Virus record (IMG/VR): IMGVR_UViG_2811994932_000001 | Coordinates: 1 to 42,135 of that record | Strand: one strand, 5' to 3' | Length of the DNA stretch: 42,135 nucleotides | DNA from: a virus | In this document: one piece after another, positions 1 through 24,270 of the stretch | How the letters are laid out: each line of letters starts with the position of its first letter | Position numbering within the stretch: the stretch's first letter is position 1 | Program-made: the position numbers and the translations under genes | Notes under the pieces: generated by a model | Database searches by the model: none | Told to the model about the DNA's origin: nothing | What the model saw: only the letters and a program-made list of their open reading frames with translations

Positions 1-1179
1 TCAGAGAATATTCAACCCGTTATCCCGCGCGACCTCGACGAAAGCCTCTCCCACATGCCGGATCTGCTTTTCGGTCAGCCCGAAGGTGTTGAACTTCCAG
101 ACCCTGGTGGAGCCGGGGATGACACCCGTGATACCCCGCTTCTTCATGTCGCTTGAGAGGAAGAAACCACGCTTCTTGTGCCGCTCCGCCACCGTATCGA
201 AGGAGCCGCGAGTATCGATCCTGGTCAGGGTGTGCTGCCTCGGGTAGTCGGAGAGCACCTTCGTTCCCTCGATGGAAAGGAGGGCATCCGTGACCGCCTG
301 CGAGTGCGCCACCTCGGTATCCCAGTGCTGCACGCGCTCTTTAACATGGGGGCACGAGGCCAACATCCCGACCACGGTGCCGCCCATCAAGGTGCAACCC
401 ATCATCTCCACTTCCTTTAACCCGAACGTCCGACCGGTCACGTCCCCCTTCGCCTGTGTCGTCCGGAATACCCGCTCAGCGTGCTCCTTCGTCGTCGCGA
501 GGAGACCCGACGGCGCCGGGGCCGCCATGCTCTTGTGACCCGACCCTACCACGAAGTCGGCGCCGAGCGCCCCGCCGTCGACCGGCATGATCCCGACCGT
601 GTAGGCACCGTTGACGAGGACGGGGACGTCATACTGGTGGGCGACCTTTATGATCCCCGCAACGTCGTGGACGTTCCCGAACTGGTAGTCGACGTGGTCG
701 ACGAAGAGCAGCGGCGGCGTCCGCGAGAACTCCCGGATCACAGCCTCGATCTTCTCCGCGGCGGCATCGGGGGTGATGTGGTTCTTTTCGTCCTTTTGGA
801 TCTCCCGCGGGATCCCGCCCGCCTCCTCGACCGCCATGAACTCGGTGTAGTGGGCGAGCGCCGTGACGATGACCGGATCGCCTTTCTCCACGTAGGTGCT
901 CGCGACCGCCTGGAACCCCCGGCGTGCTCCCGGAACCACCCGCACCGCGTCCATGTTCAGCCACGCGGCAAGGTCCGCATGGAACTGCGCGATGGGTGGG
1001 TTTCTGATGTAGTCGAGCCTCGGGGGGTTTCGGCAATTATCGCAGACCGAGTACCCGTCGCCGAACGAGATCGCCGCTTTCATGGCTTCGGCGGTGAGCC
1101 GCCCGCCCGCCTGGATGGGGTCGATGTTGATGTACATCTCCTCGACGTCGCGGGCCTCGATATCGACTGCGCACTTCAT
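1..1179 (-). CDS. pscS: O-phosphoseryl-tRNA:Cys-tRNA synthase (SepCysS), host gene
   Basis: 392 aa; INIDPIQAGGRL, DGYSVCDNC, HYT, SGHKS (PLP lysine) and GCTLMG motifs typical of SepCysS. Confidence 0.92.
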   Translation of the reverse strand: MKCAVDIEARDVEEMYINIDPIQAGGRLTAEAMKAAISFGDGYSVCDNCRNPPRLDYIRNPPIAQFHADLAAWLNMDAVRVVPGARRGFQAVASTYVEKGDPVIVTALAHYTEFMAVEEAGGIPREIQKDEKNHITPDAAAEKIEAVIREFSRTPPLLFVDHVDYQFGNVHDVAGIIKVAHQYDVPVLVNGAYTVGIMPVDGGALGADFVVGSGHKSMAAPAPSGLLATTKEHAERVFRTTQAKGDVTGRTFGLKEVEMMGCTLMGGTVVGMLASCPHVKERVQHWDTEVAHSQAVTDALLSIEGTKVLSDYPRQHTLTRIDTRGSFDTVAERHKKRGFFLSSDMKKRGITGVIPGSTRVWKFNTFGLTEKQIRHVGEAFVEVARDNGLNIL

Positions 1180-1373
1180 CGCATCAGCTCCTCTTCGATG
1201 ATTGCTATCTGCCGCTTCACCTTCTCAAGGGAGGTTGCGGCACGCTTCTTCTGCGCTTCATCGAGGTCATGCTGCGGAGCGGTCTCCCGCAGCAGGAACC
1301 GGATGTCGGAGAGGAGGAAGAGTGCCTGAAAAACTGCATCAACGGCTCTTTTCGACACGAGATCACCATACAA
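1176..1373 (-). CDS. Small helical protein coupled to pscS; candidate truncated SepCysE-like partner
   Basis: 65 aa, amphipathic helices, ATGA overlap with pscS start; identity inferred from gene context only. Confidence 0.5.
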   Translation of the reverse strand: MYGDLVSKRAVDAVFQALFLLSDIRFLLRETAPQHDLDEAQKKRAATSLEKVKRQIAIIEEELMR

Positions 1374-1476
1374 ATATCAGTGAGGTTAATAATATAGTAG
1401 TATTAAGATAACAATTTGGCTGGCCCCTCAATGCAGGCCCCCCATCCTATTAGGTGAGCCCCACCTATATATCCCC

Positions 1477-2282: not shown

Positions 2283-2417
2283 CTACTCCTCTGCCGCGAG
2301 GGCTGCCGCGACCATCTCCGGCAGGTTGCCTAGAGCAGGGACGTTCTCGATCGTCCGCCGCCCCTCCCGGATCTGCCGGACCCAGATCTTGACGAGCCCG
2401 GAGTCTACCGTGAACAT
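2283..2417 (-). CDS. XkdX/CD1375-like small phage protein (not in ORF track)
   Basis: MFTVDSGLVKIWVRQIREGRRTIENVPALGNLPEMVAAALAAEE, 44 aa; TAATG overlap with the upstream gene. Confidence 0.7.
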   Translation of the reverse strand: MFTVDSGLVKIWVRQIREGRRTIENVPALGNLPEMVAAALAAEE

Positions 2418-2800
2418 TACGCCCCACCTGCGAGGAGCAGCGACATCTCCACAATGGCATCCTCAAGTTCCTGCGTCCGCCGGCGGAGACCCGGGGCCTC
2501 GGTCGCCTCGGTCATCCCGGCCTGCGCCCATGCCCGGATCTCCCCCTCGTTCGCGGCGAGGTAGGCGAGACCCGCTGCGGACAGGACCGGGCGGTATTCG
2601 CCGGGCTCGATATACTCCGGCTCCGGGAGCGGGACCCAGAGCACCTGCTCCTGATACTCCCACTCCGTGCGCGTGCCCATGTCGTCGGTGATCTCCTTCT
2701 GTACTGCGTCCCAGTGCACCAGCAGCCGCACCCGTCCGTCCTGGACGATGTCGGGCTGCAGGGTTTCGGGCTCTACGGTGCTGCCAACCAGCCTGGCCAT
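2417..2800 (-). CDS. Tail fibre-associated protein/chaperone (XkdW-like position)
   Basis: 127 aa, C-terminal ELEDAIVEMSLLL helix, directly upstream of the XkdX-like gene. Confidence 0.55.
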   Translation of the reverse strand: MARLVGSTVEPETLQPDIVQDGRVRLLVHWDAVQKEITDDMGTRTEWEYQEQVLWVPLPEPEYIEPGEYRPVLSAAGLAYLAANEGEIRAWAQAGMTEATEAPGLRRRTQELEDAIVEMSLLLAGGA

Positions 2801-3837
2801 TTCATTCCTCCTGTAGTTACTGCGTGTTTCACTGCTGTACGAATCGCGGGGTTCTCGTAGAGATACTTCCGCCCGAAGTTGTGACAGTCACAATGCTTTA
2901 ACCACCCATGATATGCCCCCAGAGAACCCAGAATCGCGTCCGGGCTCATCGTCAAGTAGTTCTGCTCGATCTCGCGGACCTTCTTCTTCAGCCGGCGAGC
3001 CGAGGATTTCCGGAGGATCGTGTGCGTCCTGAACGTGCGATACCCAAGGAAATCTACCCCGCAGCGGTCGACCGGGAAGATCGACGTTTTCGGGTTCAGC
3101 CGGAGCCCGAGCGTGTCGAAGAACTCCTCGATCCGGTGGAGGACCTCCTGCAGCCACCCCTTATCGCGGTGCAGAACCACGCCATCGTCGCAGTACCGGA
3201 TGTAGTACCGCGCCCGCATCTTCTCCTTCAGCCAGTGATCGAACGGCGTTAAGTACAAGTTCGAGAAGTACTGCGAGAGGTAATTCCCGATCGGCACACC
3301 TGCGTTCGGCGAGCTGTAGATCACGTCCCGGAGGACCTCGAGCACGCTCCGGTCTTTCACCGTCCGCTGCACGATCTCGTACATCTTGTCCGGCCGGATC
3401 GAGGGGTAGAACTTCGAGATGTCGAATTTCAGGCAGTACCGGGTCCGGTCGGTGTCCATCATGAACCGGCGGAGCCGATACGAGCCCGCATGCAAGCCCT
3501 TACCCGGAATTGCCGAATAGAGGTCGTGAATGAACTGCCGATCCCAGATCGGCTGCATCACCTGCATGACCGCGTGATGGATGATCCGGTCGGGATAGTA
3601 CGGGAGCTTGTAGATCGTCCGCTGCTTCGGCTCGTAGATGACTTTCGTCGTGTAGGGCGAGGTCGCGAACGTTCCGCTGACGAGTTCCTCCTGTAGTTCG
3701 CGGAGATAGTAATCCGGGTCCGCATCAACCAGTTTCACCGCGTAATAGTGCGTCTTGCCTTTGCGGGCGTTCTGGTGCGCTCTCCGGAGGTTATCAATCG
3801 ATACCAGGGTCGAGAAGAGGTCGCCGCGGCGCTTCAT
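2773..3837 (-). CDS. DGR reverse transcriptase
   Basis: 354 aa; DRIIHHA, KFDISKFYPSI, GVPIGNYLSQ, YIRYCDD, DFLGY motifs; adjacent TR/VR pair. Confidence 0.97.
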   Translation of the reverse strand: MKRRGDLFSTLVSIDNLRRAHQNARKGKTHYYAVKLVDADPDYYLRELQEELVSGTFATSPYTTKVIYEPKQRTIYKLPYYPDRIIHHAVMQVMQPIWDRQFIHDLYSAIPGKGLHAGSYRLRRFMMDTDRTRYCLKFDISKFYPSIRPDKMYEIVQRTVKDRSVLEVLRDVIYSSPNAGVPIGNYLSQYFSNLYLTPFDHWLKEKMRARYYIRYCDDGVVLHRDKGWLQEVLHRIEEFFDTLGLRLNPKTSIFPVDRCGVDFLGYRTFRTHTILRKSSARRLKKKVREIEQNYLTMSPDAILGSLGAYHGWLKHCDCHNFGRKYLYENPAIRTAVKHAVTTGGMKWPGWLAAP

Positions 3838-4145
3838 GAGGCAAGCCCCCGCAGCCCTGCCGACAGGAGAGAGCGTTCCGCCGCGCTGACGCGAGTACCA
3901 GCACTCTCCTGTGGACGGGTTTTGTCTTTGGCCCCGACATCGTCGGGACTCGGGTCAGTGCGCTGTTCAGGGCCGCTCAGTCGGAACCTGAGCTCGACGT
4001 GGGTGCCATTGTTGCGATTGGAATTCGAGACCGTGTTATTCGCATTCCGATAGCCGGGACCTGCATTCCGCGCATTATTCCAATTGCCCCCTGCAAGCAG
4101 GAGAAGAGGAAGGCCCCCACAGTGTCGCGCACGAACCAGTATCAT
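3834..4145 (-). CDS. ORF spanning the DGR template repeat and spacer (translation uncertain)
   Basis: 103 aa open frame, purine-rich GGGGGAGGGGAG upstream of ATG, ATGA overlap with RT. Confidence 0.35.
   Translation of the reverse strand: MILVRARHCGGLPLLLLAGGNWNNARNAGPGYRNANNTVSNSNRNNGTHVELRFRLSGPEQRTDPSPDDVGAKDKTRPQESAGTRVSAAERSLLSAGLRGLAS
3993..4102 (-). repeat. DGR template repeat (TR)
   Basis: 110 bp ungapped match to 4494-4603; AAC/AAT-rich; 29 coding-strand adenines. Confidence 0.97.
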
Positions 4146-4164
4146 TGTTTGCTCCCCTCCCCCT

Positions 4165-4455
4165 TCAAGTTAGCGTATAGTACCGGTTGATTTTCCGAAT
4201 GGTCGCGACAAACGGCAGATGCTCTTTATACCGTTCCAGTTGATCAGAGATGACCTCAGACCCGGTGAACAGGACGTGCGTCTCCCCACCCATCTCGAAC
4301 TGCACGGTCGTATACCGCGCGTTCTCCTTGAACTTGCTTTGACCTCGCTTGAAATCGAGAATCAGAACCTCCTGGTTCAGCACATCGTCAATGCCCATCT
4401 TCTTTCCGTCGAGAGGTTTCTCCTCCGTCGCGAAATCAGAAAATTTGGGGTGCGT
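4165..4455 (-). CDS. Small DGR-linked accessory protein, not Avd-like; start at ATG 4398 or ACG 4455
   Basis: Open frame HPKFSDFATEEKPLDGKKMGIDDVLNQEVLILDF...RKINRYYTLT; GGAGGTG lies 7 nt before ACG 4455. Confidence 0.75.
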   Translation of the reverse strand, partial: THPKFSDFATEEKPLDGKKMGIDDVLNQEVLILDFKRGQSKFKENARYTTVQFEMGGETHVLFTGSEVISDQLERYKEHLPFVATIRKINRYYTLT

Positions 4456-4469
4456 CTTATCACACCTCC

Positions 4470-5840
4470 TTATGCCTCTTCAGGGGGCCGGAACTCGACG
4501 CGGGCGCCATCGGAGCGAGCGGAAGACGAGACCGCGTTATTCGCATTCCGAGAGCCGGGACCCGCAGTCCGCGCATGACGCCAAGCGCCCCCCGCAAGCA
4601 GGATTCTGTCTCCGGTTGGCGCGTACCAATTGTCGCACAGATACGTGCTGTCCGATCCGGTTACCGCCGACGGCATGGCAGCCATGCCGCCGAGTTCGTC
4701 TTCCAGCAGCCCCGAGACATAGCCGCTCACCTGCGGGACACCCGATCCTGCTTCATAGGACCCATCGGCCATTGTCCCTGCGAGAGTCCCCGATCCATCG
4801 CGCTTGATGGTGCGGAAGATGCCGCCGGCCTTGAAGTTGCATCCGATGATGAACTTCCAGTCGTTGCCGTAGGGGTTCTCGATCCCTCTCCAGCAGATCG
4901 GGGTCTGCCCGTTCGTTCCGGACCCTACTCCGGTGCCGTTCTCCGCCAGCCGGGAGTCGATACTATCCGCACCGGTGTACTTTCCGGCAAACTTGGTGCC
5001 GCTCGCCAGGTCAACGATCCCTTTTCCGAGCGCAGTCTGGATGTCAAACGTCCCGAACTCCAGATACATCAGGAGTTGGTCGCCGACGTAGTCCCAGAAG
5101 TTCGTGATCCCGAACCCGGTGCCGACGAGGCTCGCGCACTTCTCCGCGATGGTGATGGTGAACTCACCCTCTCTTGTAAGGGTGATGTCAGGCACGTTGG
5201 CGTCGATCAGTCCGGGATACGGATCCCAGTCGGCATGTTCAACAGTGTCTCCCGAGTTCCCCGTCACCGGCTTCTTCCCAGCAGCGCTGCCGAGTTTGAA
5301 GGCGCCCGCGTCAACATACCCATACGCCTCGTAAGCCCCGGAATACAGGTAGTCCGTTGCCGTCGGATCCAGCGGGTCGCCGCGCTGCATGAACGCCGGC
5401 CACAGGGTGAACCCGACGTGCGGCTCTGCGGAGAACCAGTGCCGGAAGTAGGGGTATTTGCACTCGAACTTGTGGTAGTACTTCGGCTTCCGGACCAGCA
5501 CATCGCCGGCGGTGCCGTCGAGCACAAGCCCGTCCCCCCGGCCATTGGGTGAGAGCGTTATCTCCCCGGTCGTCCGGTCCCGGGTGCAGCGGCGGCGGTC
5601 GAAGATCAGATGCTTGTCGAAGTAGTCACTCGGCAGGCTGGTGATATATCGGCCTCCTCCGTCGATCCTGCGGAGCACCGGACTGGTGGAAGATGCGTCC
5701 CACTCAAACCCGATGACATCCCCGGAGTATGGGCGTTTCACGAAGTCGACCAGTTTGTTCCCCGGCGCGACGATCTTCGAGTTCATGGTGTCTGCGTGCA
5801 CCGGATCGGTTGTCAGGATATTCTGGAATGATTCTATCAT
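4470..5840 (-). CDS. DGR target: tail adhesin/receptor-binding protein with C-terminal CLec-type variable region
   Basis: 456 aa; WRGIENPYGN and ILLAGGAW...GARVEF motifs; VR at the extreme C-terminus; follows the tail-collar gene. Confidence 0.9.
   Translation of the reverse strand: MIESFQNILTTDPVHADTMNSKIVAPGNKLVDFVKRPYSGDVIGFEWDASSTSPVLRRIDGGGRYITSLPSDYFDKHLIFDRRRCTRDRTTGEITLSPNGRGDGLVLDGTAGDVLVRKPKYYHKFECKYPYFRHWFSAEPHVGFTLWPAFMQRGDPLDPTATDYLYSGAYEAYGYVDAGAFKLGSAAGKKPVTGNSGDTVEHADWDPYPGLIDANVPDITLTREGEFTITIAEKCASLVGTGFGITNFWDYVGDQLLMYLEFGTFDIQTALGKGIVDLASGTKFAGKYTGADSIDSRLAENGTGVGSGTNGQTPICWRGIENPYGNDWKFIIGCNFKAGGIFRTIKRDGSGTLAGTMADGSYEAGSGVPQVSGYVSGLLEDELGGMAAMPSAVTGSDSTYLCDNWYAPTGDRILLAGGAWRHARTAGPGSRNANNAVSSSARSDGARVEFRPPEEA
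4494..4603 (-). repeat. DGR variable repeat (VR)
   Basis: 19 mismatches to TR, all at TR adenines (9 A>G, 8 A>C, 2 A>T), none at 81 non-A positions. Confidence 0.97.
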
Positions 5841-5852
5841 CGTTGTTCCTCC

Positions 5853-6233
5853 TCAGAACTGCTCGGTCCACTGTACCTCGAACCGGGTATCCGCGTCTTT
5901 CGCCTTCGGCGAGAAGTTCTTGTACGCGACAAGACTCCCGTCGGCGTCAATCAGCCCGCAGGTCGAGACGATCTGCCCGACCTCGTGAGCGTAATCCAGC
6001 CGGCCGACGATCGTGCAGACCATCCCGTTTGCCGTCACACTGGAGACCGGCCGGAGGGTCCCGAACTGTCCCGGAACAGTCGTCCGGTTGTCGTCTACTG
6101 CGATCGGGTTTCCGCCGGCGTCGTGCCCGCCGTTCCCGAACGCCAGGTGCGTGATCCGCGGCAGGATGCCAGTCTGGTGCGCCGCAGCGAACTTTGCCCG
6201 GCCCACCTTAGTCGTCGTGATGATCTCTGTCAT
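5853..6233 (-). CDS. Tail-collar fibre N-terminal domain protein (DUF3751-like)
   Basis: 126 aa; IITTTKVGRAKFA..ITHLAFGNGG..GLIDADGSLVAYKNFSPKAKD pattern. Confidence 0.75.
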   Translation of the reverse strand: MTEIITTTKVGRAKFAAAHQTGILPRITHLAFGNGGHDAGGNPIAVDDNRTTVPGQFGTLRPVSSVTANGMVCTIVGRLDYAHEVGQIVSTCGLIDADGSLVAYKNFSPKAKDADTRFEVQWTEQF

Positions 6234-6315
6234 GGTTCTCTTCCTCTGAATTCTGTTCGTTGCGCTTCACAACCCGCAATTCCATCGAGAAACGCGGTTT
6301 AATCTCTGTCCTCAT
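6208..6315 (-). CDS. Possible 35-aa peptide bridging baseplate and tail-collar genes
   Basis: MRTEIKPRFSMELRVVKRNEQNSEEENHDRDHHDD; ATGA overlap with the upstream stop. Confidence 0.3.
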   Translation of the reverse strand: MRTEIKPRFSMELRVVKRNEQNSEEENHDRDHHDD

Positions 6316-7523
6316 GCTGTCACCTCAGTAATTGTCACATCGTGCACCACCAACCCCCGGAGCCCGTTGAACCCGAGCCCTCCAGCGAAGGGGAGGCTCA
6401 TATCGAACCGGCTCACTGGTCCGCAGGCTGCCTGGTGCTCGACACTCTCGACGGTGCCGTGCTCTGCCCGCAGTGCCGTGTATCCATCGAACCGCCGGCC
6501 CCCGGAAAACATGAGGTCCCCCGTGAACCGGGGCATCGTCGGACCTAGCGTATCCGTCGCCGCTGCTGCCTGCTCGACCCCGACCGCCGTATCCCCGGGC
6601 ACCTGGAGGACCAGGCGCGGATCATGTACGGCGATCTCCCGGGACGCATCGAACAGCTCCCGGCCGTTGAACCGGGCAAGTCCCTCGAACCGGTGTTCGG
6701 GTGCGGTGACGATCCGGTGATCGGCAGCGAGGGACTCCTCGTGCTCGACCCGGAGCGCAGAGTATCCACCGTCAAAAGAGGTCGAGCCGTCGAAGGCGTA
6801 TGACCCATCATACAGATGAGATCGCACGGTCCCGAGCGTCAGGTGCGGATGGGCGACCTGCACCACAGAGATCGCACGGTCCCGAGCGGCCTTGAGTATC
6901 GGGAACCATTTCACCCGCACCCCCCCGGCAGCAGACTCTGCCGCGACCGCGACCAGGTCCGCTATCGACGCGAGGATGTCCTCAGCCCGATACGAGGTCC
7001 CGGCCCGGTCGAACGCAGCCTGAATATCCTCGTAGAGGGCATCCAGATCACAGCGGACGATGACCGCGGCCGGCTCCGGAGGTCCGAGGGGGCAGGGGTC
7101 GCCGGCGTCGAAGACCTGAACCTCTGCGTCGAAGCGAAGGCTCCCGTCGAAGTGGTAGTCCCATACCGCGACGTCGGTCCACCCCTCCTGGAGACCGATG
7201 AACGCCCGGCCCATGAATGCATCCAGGATCTCGTTGAACCGCTCGATCTCTCCGCTGGAGGGGATGGTCGCGACCCTCAGCCGCAGCCGGCGGCGATACT
7301 CGATATCGCTCATCCCACCCCGGGGTCGGTCAAGGTCGCGCCCGATCATATCGAGCGCCGCTCCTTCTGCATCGTCGAGTGAGCGCCAGGCACGGACCCG
7401 GTCGAGCGCCGCTCGCATCTCGTCCCGGTCAGCCGCGTCGAGCTGTAGGATCCGGTAGATTACGCTGTCAGGGGCCTTGGCATAGGCGTCCGGCAACCGG
7501 AGGATCTGATCTTCGACGGTCAT
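6312..7523 (-). CDS. Baseplate wedge/tail protein (gpI/DUF2612-like) with FDG repeats
   Basis: 403 aa; AEGAALDMIGRDLDRPR..SDIEYRRRL motif; follows baseplate J. Confidence 0.75.
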   Translation of the reverse strand: MTVEDQILRLPDAYAKAPDSVIYRILQLDAADRDEMRAALDRVRAWRSLDDAEGAALDMIGRDLDRPRGGMSDIEYRRRLRLRVATIPSSGEIERFNEILDAFMGRAFIGLQEGWTDVAVWDYHFDGSLRFDAEVQVFDAGDPCPLGPPEPAAVIVRCDLDALYEDIQAAFDRAGTSYRAEDILASIADLVAVAAESAAGGVRVKWFPILKAARDRAISVVQVAHPHLTLGTVRSHLYDGSYAFDGSTSFDGGYSALRVEHEESLAADHRIVTAPEHRFEGLARFNGRELFDASREIAVHDPRLVLQVPGDTAVGVEQAAAATDTLGPTMPRFTGDLMFSGGRRFDGYTALRAEHGTVESVEHQAACGPVSRFDMSLPFAGGLGFNGLRGLVVHDVTITEVTA

Positions 7524-8665
7524 GGCGACGTCACCGTTATGGTCCCGGGCACGGCCACCTCGGCCTTGGCAACCGCGATGTTCCCTGTCCCCCCGTTCAC
7601 CGTCAGCGTCGGGATATCGATGATCCCGGGGATGCTATGGATCCGGGAGATGAGCCGGGTATAGATCACGTCCTCGCCGAGAGCGAGCCCGGAGAGATAC
7701 CCTTCGATCGCCGCACCGACCTGATCGTCCCCGTCCGGCGGGAAGATGGCTATATCCACTGTCAGCGTGGCGCTGACGTTGACCGTCACGAGGTCCGGGC
7801 GGTTGAACCCGATCGTGTGCGTAACTCCGCGGCTATCGGTGAGCTCGTGCACCTCGTCCTCTCCCCAGCACTGGATCCCCGCCGGCTTCACCGTGTACAG
7901 CGTATCAACGATCCCGTCGGCGTCGCCACCCCACACTATCGGCGCGATGGCCTTCGGCGGGATCCCGGTTACCGGGTCTGTCTCCAGGGTGACATTCTGC
8001 CGGACCTCTGCATCGAGCACCCCCTCGATGTCGAGCAGCGCCGCCTCGATTGCCGCTGCGGATGCTCCGCCGGGTTTCGAGACGCTGCGGACGTACCGCT
8101 CCCTGAGCTGCGCGTCGGTCTCGGCGTCCCGGCCGCCCGAGGTCGGGTCAGGGTTGGTTACGGCAATGACGCCCGCGATCGGGGAAACAACGCGGGAGAT
8201 CGCTCCGGCGCCGACGTTCCCGTCAACCCCGGCGTCGACGGCCTCGATATCGGCCCGGGCAAGAGCCCCGGAGATTGTGGTAGCCGTCGTCGTCCTGTAC
8301 ACGATCCCCGTCGCGGTCTGCACCTCAATCCCCGGGTAGACCTGCGTCCCGTCAACCCCGGAGAACTGGATCGTCCCGGTGGCCCGGGTCGCCAGCTGAC
8401 GCATGATGCCGATATCCTGGCACTTCCGGTCGAGGCTGACCCCTTCTGCCGACGAGACGTACGCGGATAAGTAGACCTCTTCCATCTGCTGCCAGACGGC
8501 CGCCTCGTCCCAGGCGTTCAGCCGGACCAGCATGCCGAGCGGCGAGGAGTCCGAGAGGTTCGCGTCGTTGCCGAACAGTTCTCGTGCCCGGCGCTCCTTC
8601 TCCGGCAGGATGTCCGCGTAGCGTTTTGGAGCGAACCCCTTCTCCGTCAGTCCGAATTCCGTCAT
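7520..8665 (-). CDS. Baseplate J-like protein
   Basis: 381 aa; AEGVSLD..GI.R..AT.ATG and GGRDAETDAQLRER motifs. Confidence 0.92.
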   Translation of the reverse strand: MTEFGLTEKGFAPKRYADILPEKERRARELFGNDANLSDSSPLGMLVRLNAWDEAAVWQQMEEVYLSAYVSSAEGVSLDRKCQDIGIMRQLATRATGTIQFSGVDGTQVYPGIEVQTATGIVYRTTTATTISGALARADIEAVDAGVDGNVGAGAISRVVSPIAGVIAVTNPDPTSGGRDAETDAQLRERYVRSVSKPGGASAAAIEAALLDIEGVLDAEVRQNVTLETDPVTGIPPKAIAPIVWGGDADGIVDTLYTVKPAGIQCWGEDEVHELTDSRGVTHTIGFNRPDLVTVNVSATLTVDIAIFPPDGDDQVGAAIEGYLSGLALGEDVIYTRLISRIHSIPGIIDIPTLTVNGGTGNIAVAKAEVAVPGTITVTSP

Positions 8666-22645: not shown

Positions 22646-24046
22646 TTACTCTCCCGCTCCGGGCTGCTCGCCCTCACTCTCCTGCTCATCGCCCTCCTGC
22701 AGGTACCTGGAGAGATCTACCTTGCTCTCCTGCTCGGACTGCAGCCGCGTCAGCTCGGCCTGCGCGTCCTCAACCCAGGGGTGGTGGGCGACGATAGTCT
22801 CCTGCGAGATTATCCCCATGCTTGATTCTGCAATCTGCGAGAGTTCGAGGTCGTTGATGAGCAGGGACTTATTATACGTGATCTTCACGCTGCGCGGGTT
22901 AAAGGTGCCGACGCCCTTGAGGTCAAGGTACTTAGCAGCAAACCAGCAGAACTTCTTGATTGCGACAGAGAACCGGCGTGCCATGACGTTGCTTTTCAGG
23001 TCAAGGAGGGAGTAGAGGAACTTGAGCGCGATCCCGCTCGGCGCCGAGCCGAACGTGTCGGTCTTGACATTGACCCCCTGCCCGTGGATGAAGATGTTCT
23101 CCTCCACCCGGTTCAGGAACGAGTCGATCGCCGTGATCGCCGGATCCACGCTGAGGGTCTCGACGCCGGCGCCGGCTTCTGGGTCCACCTGGATCGCCCG
23201 ATAATACCGGAGGTTCCGGACGAACTCCGTTAGGCTTTGCCCCCCATACCCCTTCAGGACAAAGATGAGTTTCTGGATGTCTGTGAGGTCGTTGGCAAGG
23301 TCGCTGATCACGAGGTCGTAGACATCGATCAGCTCCTTGTAATACTTGAGGTCGGCGAACCGCTCTTCGTTGTTCGCGAACTCGACGAACGGGACCCGAC
23401 CCCATCCCATCGGGGTCCCGTTCAGGAAGAAATGGCCGTCCTCTGACTCGAGAGTATAGGCCCCGGCCTCCGTCTCGATGTAGGTCGAGACGCCCTCGGC
23501 GGTCCACCACTCCGCCCGGGTCTTCGTCTCCCCGCCGACCACAGCCGGGTAGTACCGGAGCATGGCGACGAGTTCTTCCTCGTAGTCCGTCTCGTAGACT
23601 GGGATGCACTGTTCCGCCGGGATGATGATGTACCGGAAATTGCCCGCCGCGTCGATGAACGGCATGAGCCATTCGACACCCTTGTTGCTGGCGTTCTTCG
23701 CGAGTTCCTGCAGCCGGTCGTCCCAGGTCTCGTCCAGGAGGACGTTGAGCTGTTCGGCGAACTGCTCATCTTCGGCGCTGATCACCGGGGGGCGGCCGAG
23801 GAGGTAGGCGACCTTCTGATCGACCAGGAGTTTGTGCCAGTCATGCGAGACGCGCTGGTTCGTGGCCTCGGTATCAATCTTCTTCTCCCCGTCCTCGTAA
23901 TACCAGATCTGCCGGTCCTTGATGCGGGTATCGTTGTTGTAGTAGTCCACCCCGACGAGCATGAGAGACGGGTCGTGGTTCGCGATCAGGGTTGCGATCG
24001 TCTGACTGACGTCACAGGCATCGATGTTCTCTGCGAGTAGTTTCAT
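22646..24046 (-). CDS. Portal protein (SPP1 gp6-like); probable start MKLLAE
   Basis: LVDQKVAYLLG, FVEFANNEE, FGSAPSGIALKFLY, ISQET...HPWVED motifs; ATGA overlap at 24046. Confidence 0.93.
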   Translation of the reverse strand: MKLLAENIDACDVSQTIATLIANHDPSLMLVGVDYYNNDTRIKDRQIWYYEDGEKKIDTEATNQRVSHDWHKLLVDQKVAYLLGRPPVISAEDEQFAEQLNVLLDETWDDRLQELAKNASNKGVEWLMPFIDAAGNFRYIIIPAEQCIPVYETDYEEELVAMLRYYPAVVGGETKTRAEWWTAEGVSTYIETEAGAYTLESEDGHFFLNGTPMGWGRVPFVEFANNEERFADLKYYKELIDVYDLVISDLANDLTDIQKLIFVLKGYGGQSLTEFVRNLRYYRAIQVDPEAGAGVETLSVDPAITAIDSFLNRVEENIFIHGQGVNVKTDTFGSAPSGIALKFLYSLLDLKSNVMARRFSVAIKKFCWFAAKYLDLKGVGTFNPRSVKITYNKSLLINDLELSQIAESSMGIISQETIVAHHPWVEDAQAELTRLQSEQESKVDLSRYLQEGDEQESEGEQPGAGE

Positions 24047-24270
24047 GCCGCATCGCGTTCCATCCGTGCGATGGCCTCCTCGACTGAGCTGTTTGCGTAG
24101 ACCTTGATCTTCTCGTGGCACTCAGCACAGAGAATGAGTCTGATATCGATGAGCGCACGCTCGTCGTAGCCGATCAGTGTCGTGTCGAGTGTCTCTCCTG
24201 CGATCTGCCATTTCTCCAGCGGATGGCCGCAGATTGAGCAGACCGATATATACAGTGAGTCGTTTGTCAT
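24043..24270 (-). CDS. Small zinc-finger protein
   Basis: 75 aa; CSICG...CAEC. Confidence 0.6.
   Translation of the reverse strand: MTNDSLYISVCSICGHPLEKWQIAGETLDTTLIGYDERALIDIRLILCAECHEKIKVYANSSVEEAIARMERDAA

Follow-up and report, generated by a model that had tools for sequence, protein, structure and literature searches.

A diversity-generating retroelement in a Methanoculleus provirus, with a predicted OB-fold protein in the position of Avd

Diversity-generating retroelements (DGRs) are, to our knowledge, the sole natural system of targeted protein hypermutation in prokaryotes, and almost everything that we know of their mechanism comes from one pair of bRT and Avd proteins. The IMG/VR provirus record IMGVR_UViG_2811994932_000001 (42,135 nt, analyzed at its full length and referred to below as the window) contains a reverse transcriptase (RT) gene together with a template repeat (TR) and a variable repeat (VR), and an earlier note, made from the sequence alone, described this locus as a complete DGR that diversifies the tail adhesin of a methanogen provirus. 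The locus raises two questions: whether this DGR is of a working type, and what is encoded by the small gene lying between the two repeats, where Avd would be expected. Our analysis suggests that the element is very probably a working-type DGR at the attachment-site (att)-proximal end of a myovirus-like Caudoviricetes provirus in a Methanoculleus genome. The features that appear new compared to known DGRs are a predicted OB-fold protein instead of Avd, a conserved ACG start of its gene, and a conserved spacer RNA.

The repeat search of the window yielded a direct repeat of 116 nt (positions 3987-4102 and 4488-4603, 82% identity), in which a core of 110 nt is aligned on the minus strand without gaps (TR 4102-3993, VR 4603-4494). 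Mismatches affect 19 of the 29 adenines of the TR and none of its 81 other bases (Fisher exact p = 2.1e-14; base composition A29 C29 G31 T21), the changes comprising 9 A>G, 8 A>C and 2 A>T. This adenine-only pattern rules out a repeat arising by chance or by duplication. The VR forms the 3' end of the coding target, covering codons 414-449 of 456, and, when read in the frame of the target open reading frame (ORF, 5840-4470), carries 12 amino acid changes relative to the TR. The TR codons able to change a residue number 16 (11 of them AAY), which corresponds to about 9e15 possible protein variants, and no stop codon can be reached by adenine substitution in the variable codons. The repeat sizes, the 19/29 versus 0/81 signature and the 12 residue changes, had been given in the earlier note and were reproduced exactly on recomputation. 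No other TR-like copy that could serve as a second VR was found in the window by adenine-tolerant matching on both strands.

The RT matches RVT_1 (2e-18) and phrog_1423 (5e-116), and is 33% identical to Brt of the Bordetella phage over 322 amino acids (aa; E 4e-51). In this alignment PIGNYLSQ corresponds to PIGSLTSQ of Brt (the PIG-x3-SQ block), and YCDD to YMDD (the Y-x-DD site). The RTs of the methanogen viruses vir525 and vir215 are 44-45% identical to it, and those of Bacillota and crAss-like phages are also among the nearest ones in the phage database.

Relatives of the window demonstrate, as far as sequence comparison can tell, that this lineage has rewritten its VR in nature. The closest one, L003, is a 51.8-kb contig from another metagenome, collinear with window positions 13746-2032 at 92% DNA identity, with an RT 96% and a target 94% identical to those of the window. 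Its TR is the same as that of the window at 110 of 110 bases, and its VR differs from the TR at 20 adenine sites and nowhere else. The VRs of the window and L003 show 16 differences from each other, all at TR adenines, against 35 over the remaining 1261 nt of the gene. Moreover, each of 24 related targets (64-92% identity) has a distinct VR. Shannon entropy among them amounts to 2.35 bits for the adenine-codon sites, with 0.31 for the remaining sites of the VR and 0.49 for the protein outside it, and since the variability is thus confined to adenine-bearing codons, the lineage can be considered to have been active in nature. The copy in the window may be active at present as well. The RT, TR and VR, the adenine-only signature, the G+C-rich end resembling an initiation of mutagenic homing (IMH) sequence, and the independent rewriting of the VR among relatives uphold the identification of the element as a DGR. 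The features of the locus are listed in Table 1.

Table 1. Features of the DGR locus, the adjacent host flank and the tail-tip genes (positions in the window)
Feature	Position	Strand	Remarks
Host flank: SepCysS (1-1179) and a small ORF	1-1388	-	Methanoculleus-like
Gene encoding 127 aa, overlaps the RT stop	2417-2800	-	no family match
DGR reverse transcriptase	2773-3837	-	354 aa, intact
103-codon frame over TR and spacer	3834-4145	-	sole family match phrog_5302, E 0.0065 (likeness of the TR to the target)
TR-RT spacer, candidate structured non-coding RNA (Sp-like)	3838-3992	-	155 nt, comparative fold
Template repeat (TR)	3993-4102	-	110 nt; 29 adenines; 11 AAY codons
Accessory gene, predicted OB-fold protein of ~96 aa	4165-4455	-	slot between VR and TR; protein 4455-4168
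DGR target gene	4470-5840	-	456 aa, tail-fibre-like variable protein
Variable repeat (VR)	4494-4603	-	codons 414-449 of target ORF 5840-4470
Tail-tip genes 5' of the target	5853-8665	-	Pfam and PHROG matches
Tail-collar-fibre N-terminal-like gene	5853-6233	-	Pfam/PHROG
Baseplate-wedge-like gene	6312-7523	-	Pfam/PHROG
Baseplate J	7520-8665	-	Pfam/PHROG

In Pfam the target itself is without a match; in PHROG it matches phrog_5302, annotated as a tail protein, at 7e-44. Its family is large, comprising over 4,200 clusters at 50% identity, and the Pfam domain Mtd_N is present in 6 of 40 sampled relatives. The AlphaFold model of the target is mediocre, with a predicted local distance difference test score (pLDDT) of 63 overall and of less than 50 in the 80 residues at the C-terminus. 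Still, structural re-alignment of this model with the CLec-fold (C-type-lectin-like) protein TaqVP (5vf4_C) gives Z 11.1 (root mean square deviation 3.7 A over 232 residues), the next match having Z 2.2. In a Foldseek search against PDB TaqVP scored no better than E 1.5e-3, with a low TM, the weak score being explained by the poor model. In BFVD, the model has 34 matches, mostly called 'tail collar fiber protein', one of them belonging to a crAss-like phage that also encodes one of the nearest RTs. The target profile produced only chance matches against PDB sequences, Mtd not being among them, and hhalign of the profile with Mtd yielded a probability of 5%, restricted to the VR region; a scan of genome contigs with the target gave no confirmed relatives. 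The claim of a tail adhesin is borne out by the baseplate J, wedge and collar-fibre neighbors, phrog_5302, the TaqVP match and the 'tail collar fiber' models. Given this context and the modelled fold, the interpretation of the target as a receptor-binding fibre tip is well supported, binding itself being a prediction. As regards the CLec fold that the earlier note suggested for the C-terminal domain, it is the model as a whole that matches a protein of this fold, TaqVP.

A cassette of the same composition (target, OB gene, TR and RT) is present at L067:6001-9250 in a tail module of siphovirus type (SPP1_Dit, Sipho_tail), with identities to the window of 70% for the RT, 55% for the OB protein and 49-51% for the target. 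Since this copy is located in a siphovirus-type module, the cassette has moved between tail types.

The 3' ends of the TR and the VR diverge as had been claimed: immediately 3' of the 110-nt core the sequences are GAGCTCAGG and GAGTTCCGG, as quoted in the earlier note, followed by further divergence. An IMH*/IMH difference is present, but its boundary is probably about 15 nt further 5' than was assumed there. The two 3'-most A>G differences (TR GGCACCCACG, VR GGCGCCCGCG) both recur in the window, L003, L005 and L088, that is, in four of the five loci read; in the fifth one, L067, only the first of them is observed, the TR having G at the second position. The corresponding codon 447 encodes Arg in 24 of 24 relatives. 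Because of this recurrence across loci, these two differences are more likely to be fixed IMH*/IMH differences than results of mutagenesis, and on such a reading 17 of 26 adenines are changed within the diversified 95 nt. The candidate IMH in the VR would be the G+C-only run GGCGCCCGCG with the following bases (approximately 4508-4483), and the candidate IMH* (approximately 4007-3982) would consist of the last ~15 nt of the TR (4007-3993) and positions 3992-3982.

The spacer between the TR and the RT gene is likely a conserved structured RNA. In an alignment of nine loci, with RTs 53-69% identical to that of the window, RNAalifold predicts 28 base pairs, 9 of which have compensatory changes on both sides (2-4 in slid controls). 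The predicted elements are a hairpin right after the TR, inner hairpins with compensatory changes, and a closing helix, in which the invariant GGCCCUG (~3974-3968) pairs with CAGGGCU (~3859-3853) just ahead of the RT start. Pairing is retained in 92.5% of cells, compared to 38-53% with the partners slid, and the covariation score was reached by none of 500 shuffles. These data are support for the structure, short of proof, since it was derived from the same small alignment. A single-sequence fold of the TR with the spacer is insignificant (z -0.54), the comparative fold alone being informative. The 103-codon frame over this region is probably no real gene, as its 3' half overlies the covarying RNA structure.

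No match to Avd (PF05635) was observed in the six frames of the window at E <= 1, and hhalign of the accessory protein with BPP-1 Avd gives a probability of only 0.3%. The description of the DGR as complete thus holds in a non-canonical sense: Avd is absent, and another small protein fills its slot. The 2018 survey (Wu et al.) lists the accessory genes avd, HRDC, MSL and CH1, as well as Avd-less lineages whose mechanism is unknown, and 29% of catalogued DGRs have no accessory gene at all (PMC5758913), so Avd is not required for DGR membership. The accessory protein of the window has no sequence match in Pfam, NCBIfam or PDB.

The accessory ORF, as listed, has 77 codons from the ATG at 4398. 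Upstream of this ATG, however, the frame runs on through a motif P-K-F-S-D-F-A ... L-D-G-x-K, which is conserved in all homologues, and in more distant homologues an ATG start is located just before this motif. In the window this point is occupied by ACG (4455-4453), 7 nt after a Shine-Dalgarno (SD)-like GGAGGTG (4469-4463) that abuts the TAA of the target. The same ACG, each time 7 nt after GG-N-GGTG, is found in the window, L002, L003, L005, L067, L080 and L088, and both the codon and the spacing are thus kept in four separate lineages (the window group, L067, L080 and L088). The extension is apparently translated, as its third-base differences between lineages are synonymous. ACG is therefore likely to be a weak start of the accessory gene, and little protein is probably produced from this codon, which comes after the SD-like site directly 3' of the target stop.

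The AF2 model of the accessory protein, built on an alignment of 69 sequences, has pLDDT 82.6 and the topology b1-b2-b3-helix-b4-b5 (strands 29-39, 47-55 and 58-64, helix 67-75, strands 82-89 and 92-95). Its structural neighbors are nearly all OB domains with Z 5-7.4, including RuvBL2 DII (Z 7.4), bacterial, mitochondrial and Plasmodium single-stranded DNA-binding proteins (SSBs; Z 5.8-6.2), editosome OB proteins, PriB and Teb1/RPA. A language model points, as a lead only, to a cluster 44% of whose members carry Phi29_Phage_SSB. The predicted fold is thus of the OB type, similar to SSB, PriB and RPA.

The OB family found by the profile search consists of 769 clusters (93-113 aa), none of them named, and is without a Pfam model. 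In all 21 full-length loci examined, which fall into two gene orders, the OB gene adjoins a DGR-type RT gene. Fourteen of these loci had been reached via the RT, the target, the phage database or the genome profile search, and seven OB members were sampled regardless of the RT, being chosen solely for their location on long contigs; a gene with RVT_1 is next to the OB gene in 7 of these 7. Most of the latter have an Mtd-like target followed by the TR, the RT and the OB gene, whose start overlaps the stop of the RT. The OB gene is located after the RT, with the TR and RT between it and the target, in ANMV-1, vir525, L082, L085, L091-L093 and the P0315 contig. In 401 genomes sampled from the host's order, 6 full-length OB copies adjoin an RT and 1 is cut by the contig end; L089 has a partial copy in the form of a deletion remnant, and G233 has one of 45 residues. 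Five RT-bearing genomes of the order that are more distant gave no match to the OB family or to PF05635. In the literature searched, no publication was found that connects DGRs with a protein of OB fold or SSB-like type.

From the gene linkage and the predicted fold we propose that the OB protein may be a nucleic-acid-binding cofactor of the RT. In a broader form, which we consider quite possible and advance tentatively, this large family would serve as a cofactor specific to a clade of DGR RTs that lack Avd, to which the RT of ANMV-1, the founding DGR of archaeal viruses, belongs, with the ACG start operating in Methanoculleus through coupling to termination of the target. The gene in the slot could instead encode a tail-fibre chaperone or another virion protein travelling with the target, in a DGR that needs no accessory protein. 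Genes just 3' of receptor-binding fibres often encode chaperones, and the gene of the window is directly 3' of the target; the frequency of DGRs without accessory genes (see above) agrees with this as well. In most loci, however, the OB gene comes after the RT, overlaps its stop and is apart from the target; moreover, the target was used as a query for two of the five distant genomes mentioned above, and in L068 it detected a target gene with no OB gene, in G192 only a weak match (26%). The fold also resembles ssDNA-binding OB domains, unlike those of known fibre chaperones. Since the OB gene tracks the RT and not the target, the chaperone role is disfavored, and we regard it as unlikely.

Several observations, collected here, count against a working DGR assisted by such a cofactor. 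No significant hairpin is formed 3' of the VR (z -0.84). ACG is a poor start codon in systems studied to date, and, if it is unused, the accessory product would miss the conserved N-terminal motif. The OB-fold Z-scores of 5-7.4 are middling on the tool's own calibration, with a one-sided list of neighbors. Target residues 373-449, which include the VR, are modelled at pLDDT <50, so that the exposure of the variable residues, the other part of the earlier structural expectation, would concern a low-confidence region. Finally, the VR of the second contig L002 is the same as that of the window, and in two decayed cassettes, L005 and L089, the TR and RT have been lost by deletion with a diversified VR retained. 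In the cassette at L005:3272-3547 the deletion extends from inside the OB gene to the RT end, and in that at L089:8820-9307 it extends to the gene after the RT; these are independent events.

The unchanged VR of L002 and the decayed cassettes would fit a fossil DGR, active in ancestors and silent here with a frozen VR, for example due to ACG in place of ATG or to a defective provirus; besides, proteins of the cluster P0267, 97% identical, begin with M where the window has ACG. We find this distinctly unlikely. None of the RT, the TR, the spacer RNA and the accessory frame is disrupted, the TR is base-identical to that of L003 though the VRs differ, and the provirus is estimated by CheckV to be 100% complete. 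As for the start codon, the retention of ACG and of the 7-nt spacing in four lineages points to a maintained feature rather than a lesion. A working-type DGR therefore remains the preferred interpretation.

The provirus encodes portal, terminase, capsid, sheath-like (DUF3383), tape measure, baseplate J and PrimPol proteins, and by baseplate J and the sheath-like protein it is assigned to myovirus-like Caudoviricetes with a contractile-type tail. The integrase gene is at the right end, opposite the host flank, and the right-hand junction falls outside the window. The flank encodes SepCysS (NF006810, Sep-tRNA:Cys-tRNA synthetase, 6e-176), an enzyme typical of methanogens, whose sequence is 89-93% identical to those from most named Methanoculleus genomes. 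At the DNA level, the window is 88-90% identical to about 40 Methanoculleus genomes up to position 1388 and to none beyond it. The assignment of the host to Methanoculleus is secure, and with the flank at one end and the integrase at the other, the earlier description as a methanogen provirus is justified. No tRNA genes were detected in the window, where ARAGORN was used, or in four related loci; a tRNA-like 3' fragment is present at ~1477-1498 of the window. In uninterrupted Methanoculleus genomes there is no tRNA at the junction, which is occupied by a metallophosphoesterase-like gene.

Among species-representative genomes from the same order and family, RTs 54-75% identical to that of the window are encoded in G202, G296, G071, G349 and G262, and L088, L080 and L081 have the same cassette as the window. 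In the genome G021 (L088) the target, the small gene and the TR are present, and the contig breaks off after 25 codons of the RT; when 55 genomes from the family of the host were searched for the RT, there were no matches at 1e-20, the only cassette of the family being this one, cut after 25 RT codons. It is hardly credible that a bacterial prophage was mis-assembled onto Methanoculleus DNA, making the methanogen host an artefact, as could be suspected from the portal, which shares 43% identity with its C. difficile myophage counterparts, from Bacillota and crAss-like phages among the nearest RTs of the phage database, and from host DNA at one end only: the G+C content is 58-67% over almost all of the window, with the flank alike, IMG/VR classifies the record as a provirus, other members of the family and order (G021, G039, G202, G296 and others) have related cassettes, homologues of the target and OB proteins are named from Methanoculleus, Methanocorpusculum and Methanospirillum, and ANMV-1 and vir525, both of them archaeal viruses, have the OB gene as well.

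Some other features of the provirus deserve mention. The portal (22646-24121) shows 42-43% identity over 88% of its length to those of the C. difficile myophages phiCDKH02, phiMMP03 and phiC2, a likeness unusually close for an archaeal virus, which hints that Bacillota phages and viruses of methanogens may have exchanged head modules. The region 1539-2281, between the DGR and the provirus end, contains two small genes (84 and 89 aa) with hydrophobic C-terminal segments similar to membrane anchors, and their products may be holin-like. L003 (11813-17854) departs from the window right after the 84-aa gene, having an SNF2-like helicase and unassigned genes instead of the Methanoculleus flank; as the sequence past this gene is not Methanoculleus flank, the genome end or integration site of L003 differs. 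Its far flank had no match in five Methanoculleus genomes, and no second host junction could be obtained from it. The 127-aa gene following the RT has tblastn matches in L003, L005, L067, L080, L081 and L089. It is kept 3' of the RT in L003, L067, L080 and L081, and in L068 it adjoins a target that has no RT; possibly it is one more gene linked to the cassette.

By homology to the Bordetella phage BPP-1, we infer the following retrohoming chemistry. The RT would copy a transcript containing the TR and the structured spacer into cDNA, placing random bases opposite template adenines. The VR, 95-110 nt long and located where the tail-fibre-like gene ends 3', would then be replaced by the cDNA, with the G+C-rich IMH as the bound. 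Up to 16 codons would be re-randomized on the ligand-binding face of a C-type-lectin-like tip, and the likely outcome would be a virion binding a different structure on the host surface. The receptor of the variable tip would be such a structure, its identity as an S-layer or a glycan being pure inference.

Methanoculleus is a cultivable genus of methanogens, dominant in biogas reactors. A host-anchored DGR with evidence of natural activity makes tropism switching of an archaeal virus directly testable. The strict linkage of the OB and RT genes offers a specific candidate for retrohoming without Avd, a mechanism that has been suspected from the 2018 survey onwards and never tied to a protein, and suggests that the accessory ORFs of ANMV-1 and of the methanogen-virus catalogues should be re-read. 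If the cofactor assignment is true, mutagenic retrohoming exists in at least two forms, one with the helical-bundle pentamer of Avd and the other with an OB-fold single-strand binder, and the ACG start would be a rare documented start other than AUG, GUG or UUG in a methanogen virus. A compact set of an RT, an OB protein and a structured RNA could also serve as a tool for targeted mutagenesis.

Compared to the DGR of BPP-1 (mtd-avd-TR-brt), the element has the same order of target with the VR, small gene, TR and RT on one strand, and a similar location close to att in a temperate phage, where a tRNA 3' fragment and small ORFs are found and the target lies among tail genes. The repeats are also alike, being 110-134 nt long with changes at adenines only, many AAY codons in the template and an IMH rich in G+C, and the two VRs can be aligned with common GG-x-W and G-A-R landmarks. 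Unlike BPP-1, the window has a predicted OB-fold gene instead of Avd, an archaeal host and a contractile-type tail, and its target is larger and unrelated in sequence outside the VR.

TaqVP of Thermus aquaticus (PDB 5vf4) is the only strong structural match of the target, one that reaches the C-terminal variable region, although the sequence identity is 15%, TaqVP is a cellular and not a virion protein, and the VR of the window is modelled at low confidence. The accessory genes termed HRDC, MSL and CH1 (PMC5758913) are, similarly to the OB gene, small genes tied to particular RT clades, which may replace or supplement Avd. Their products differ from the ~96-aa OB protein, CH1 being acidic with 160-169 aa, MSL being MutS-like, and HRDC being helical.

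Among viruses of methanogens, vir525 (BK063673, Methanosarcinales) and vir215 (NC_092586/BK063676, Methanomassiliicoccales) are, like the provirus studied here, head-tail viruses with an annotated RT, though from other methanogen orders; in vir525 an OB homologue (46%), annotated as a hypothetical protein, is encoded just after the RT.

The archaeal virus ANMV-1 (KP703175) likewise has a DGR with an Mtd-like target among tail-fibre genes, and an OB homologue (AJP62065.1, 40% identity over 92 residues). There the OB gene comes after the RT (target-TR-RT-OB), and the ANME host was inferred, whereas here the host flank is present. The ANMV-1 paper labels an ORF 'Avd' and does not describe the OB family (Paul et al. 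2015, PMC4372165), and in nanoarchaeal DGRs Avd-like ORFs were assigned by size and charge (PMC4372165). DGRs have been known in archaeal viruses since ANMV-1 (PMC4372165), and approximately 31,000 metagenomic DGRs have been catalogued. The element of the window is thus a further DGR among the already known ones of archaeal viruses, and an unusually well-anchored one.

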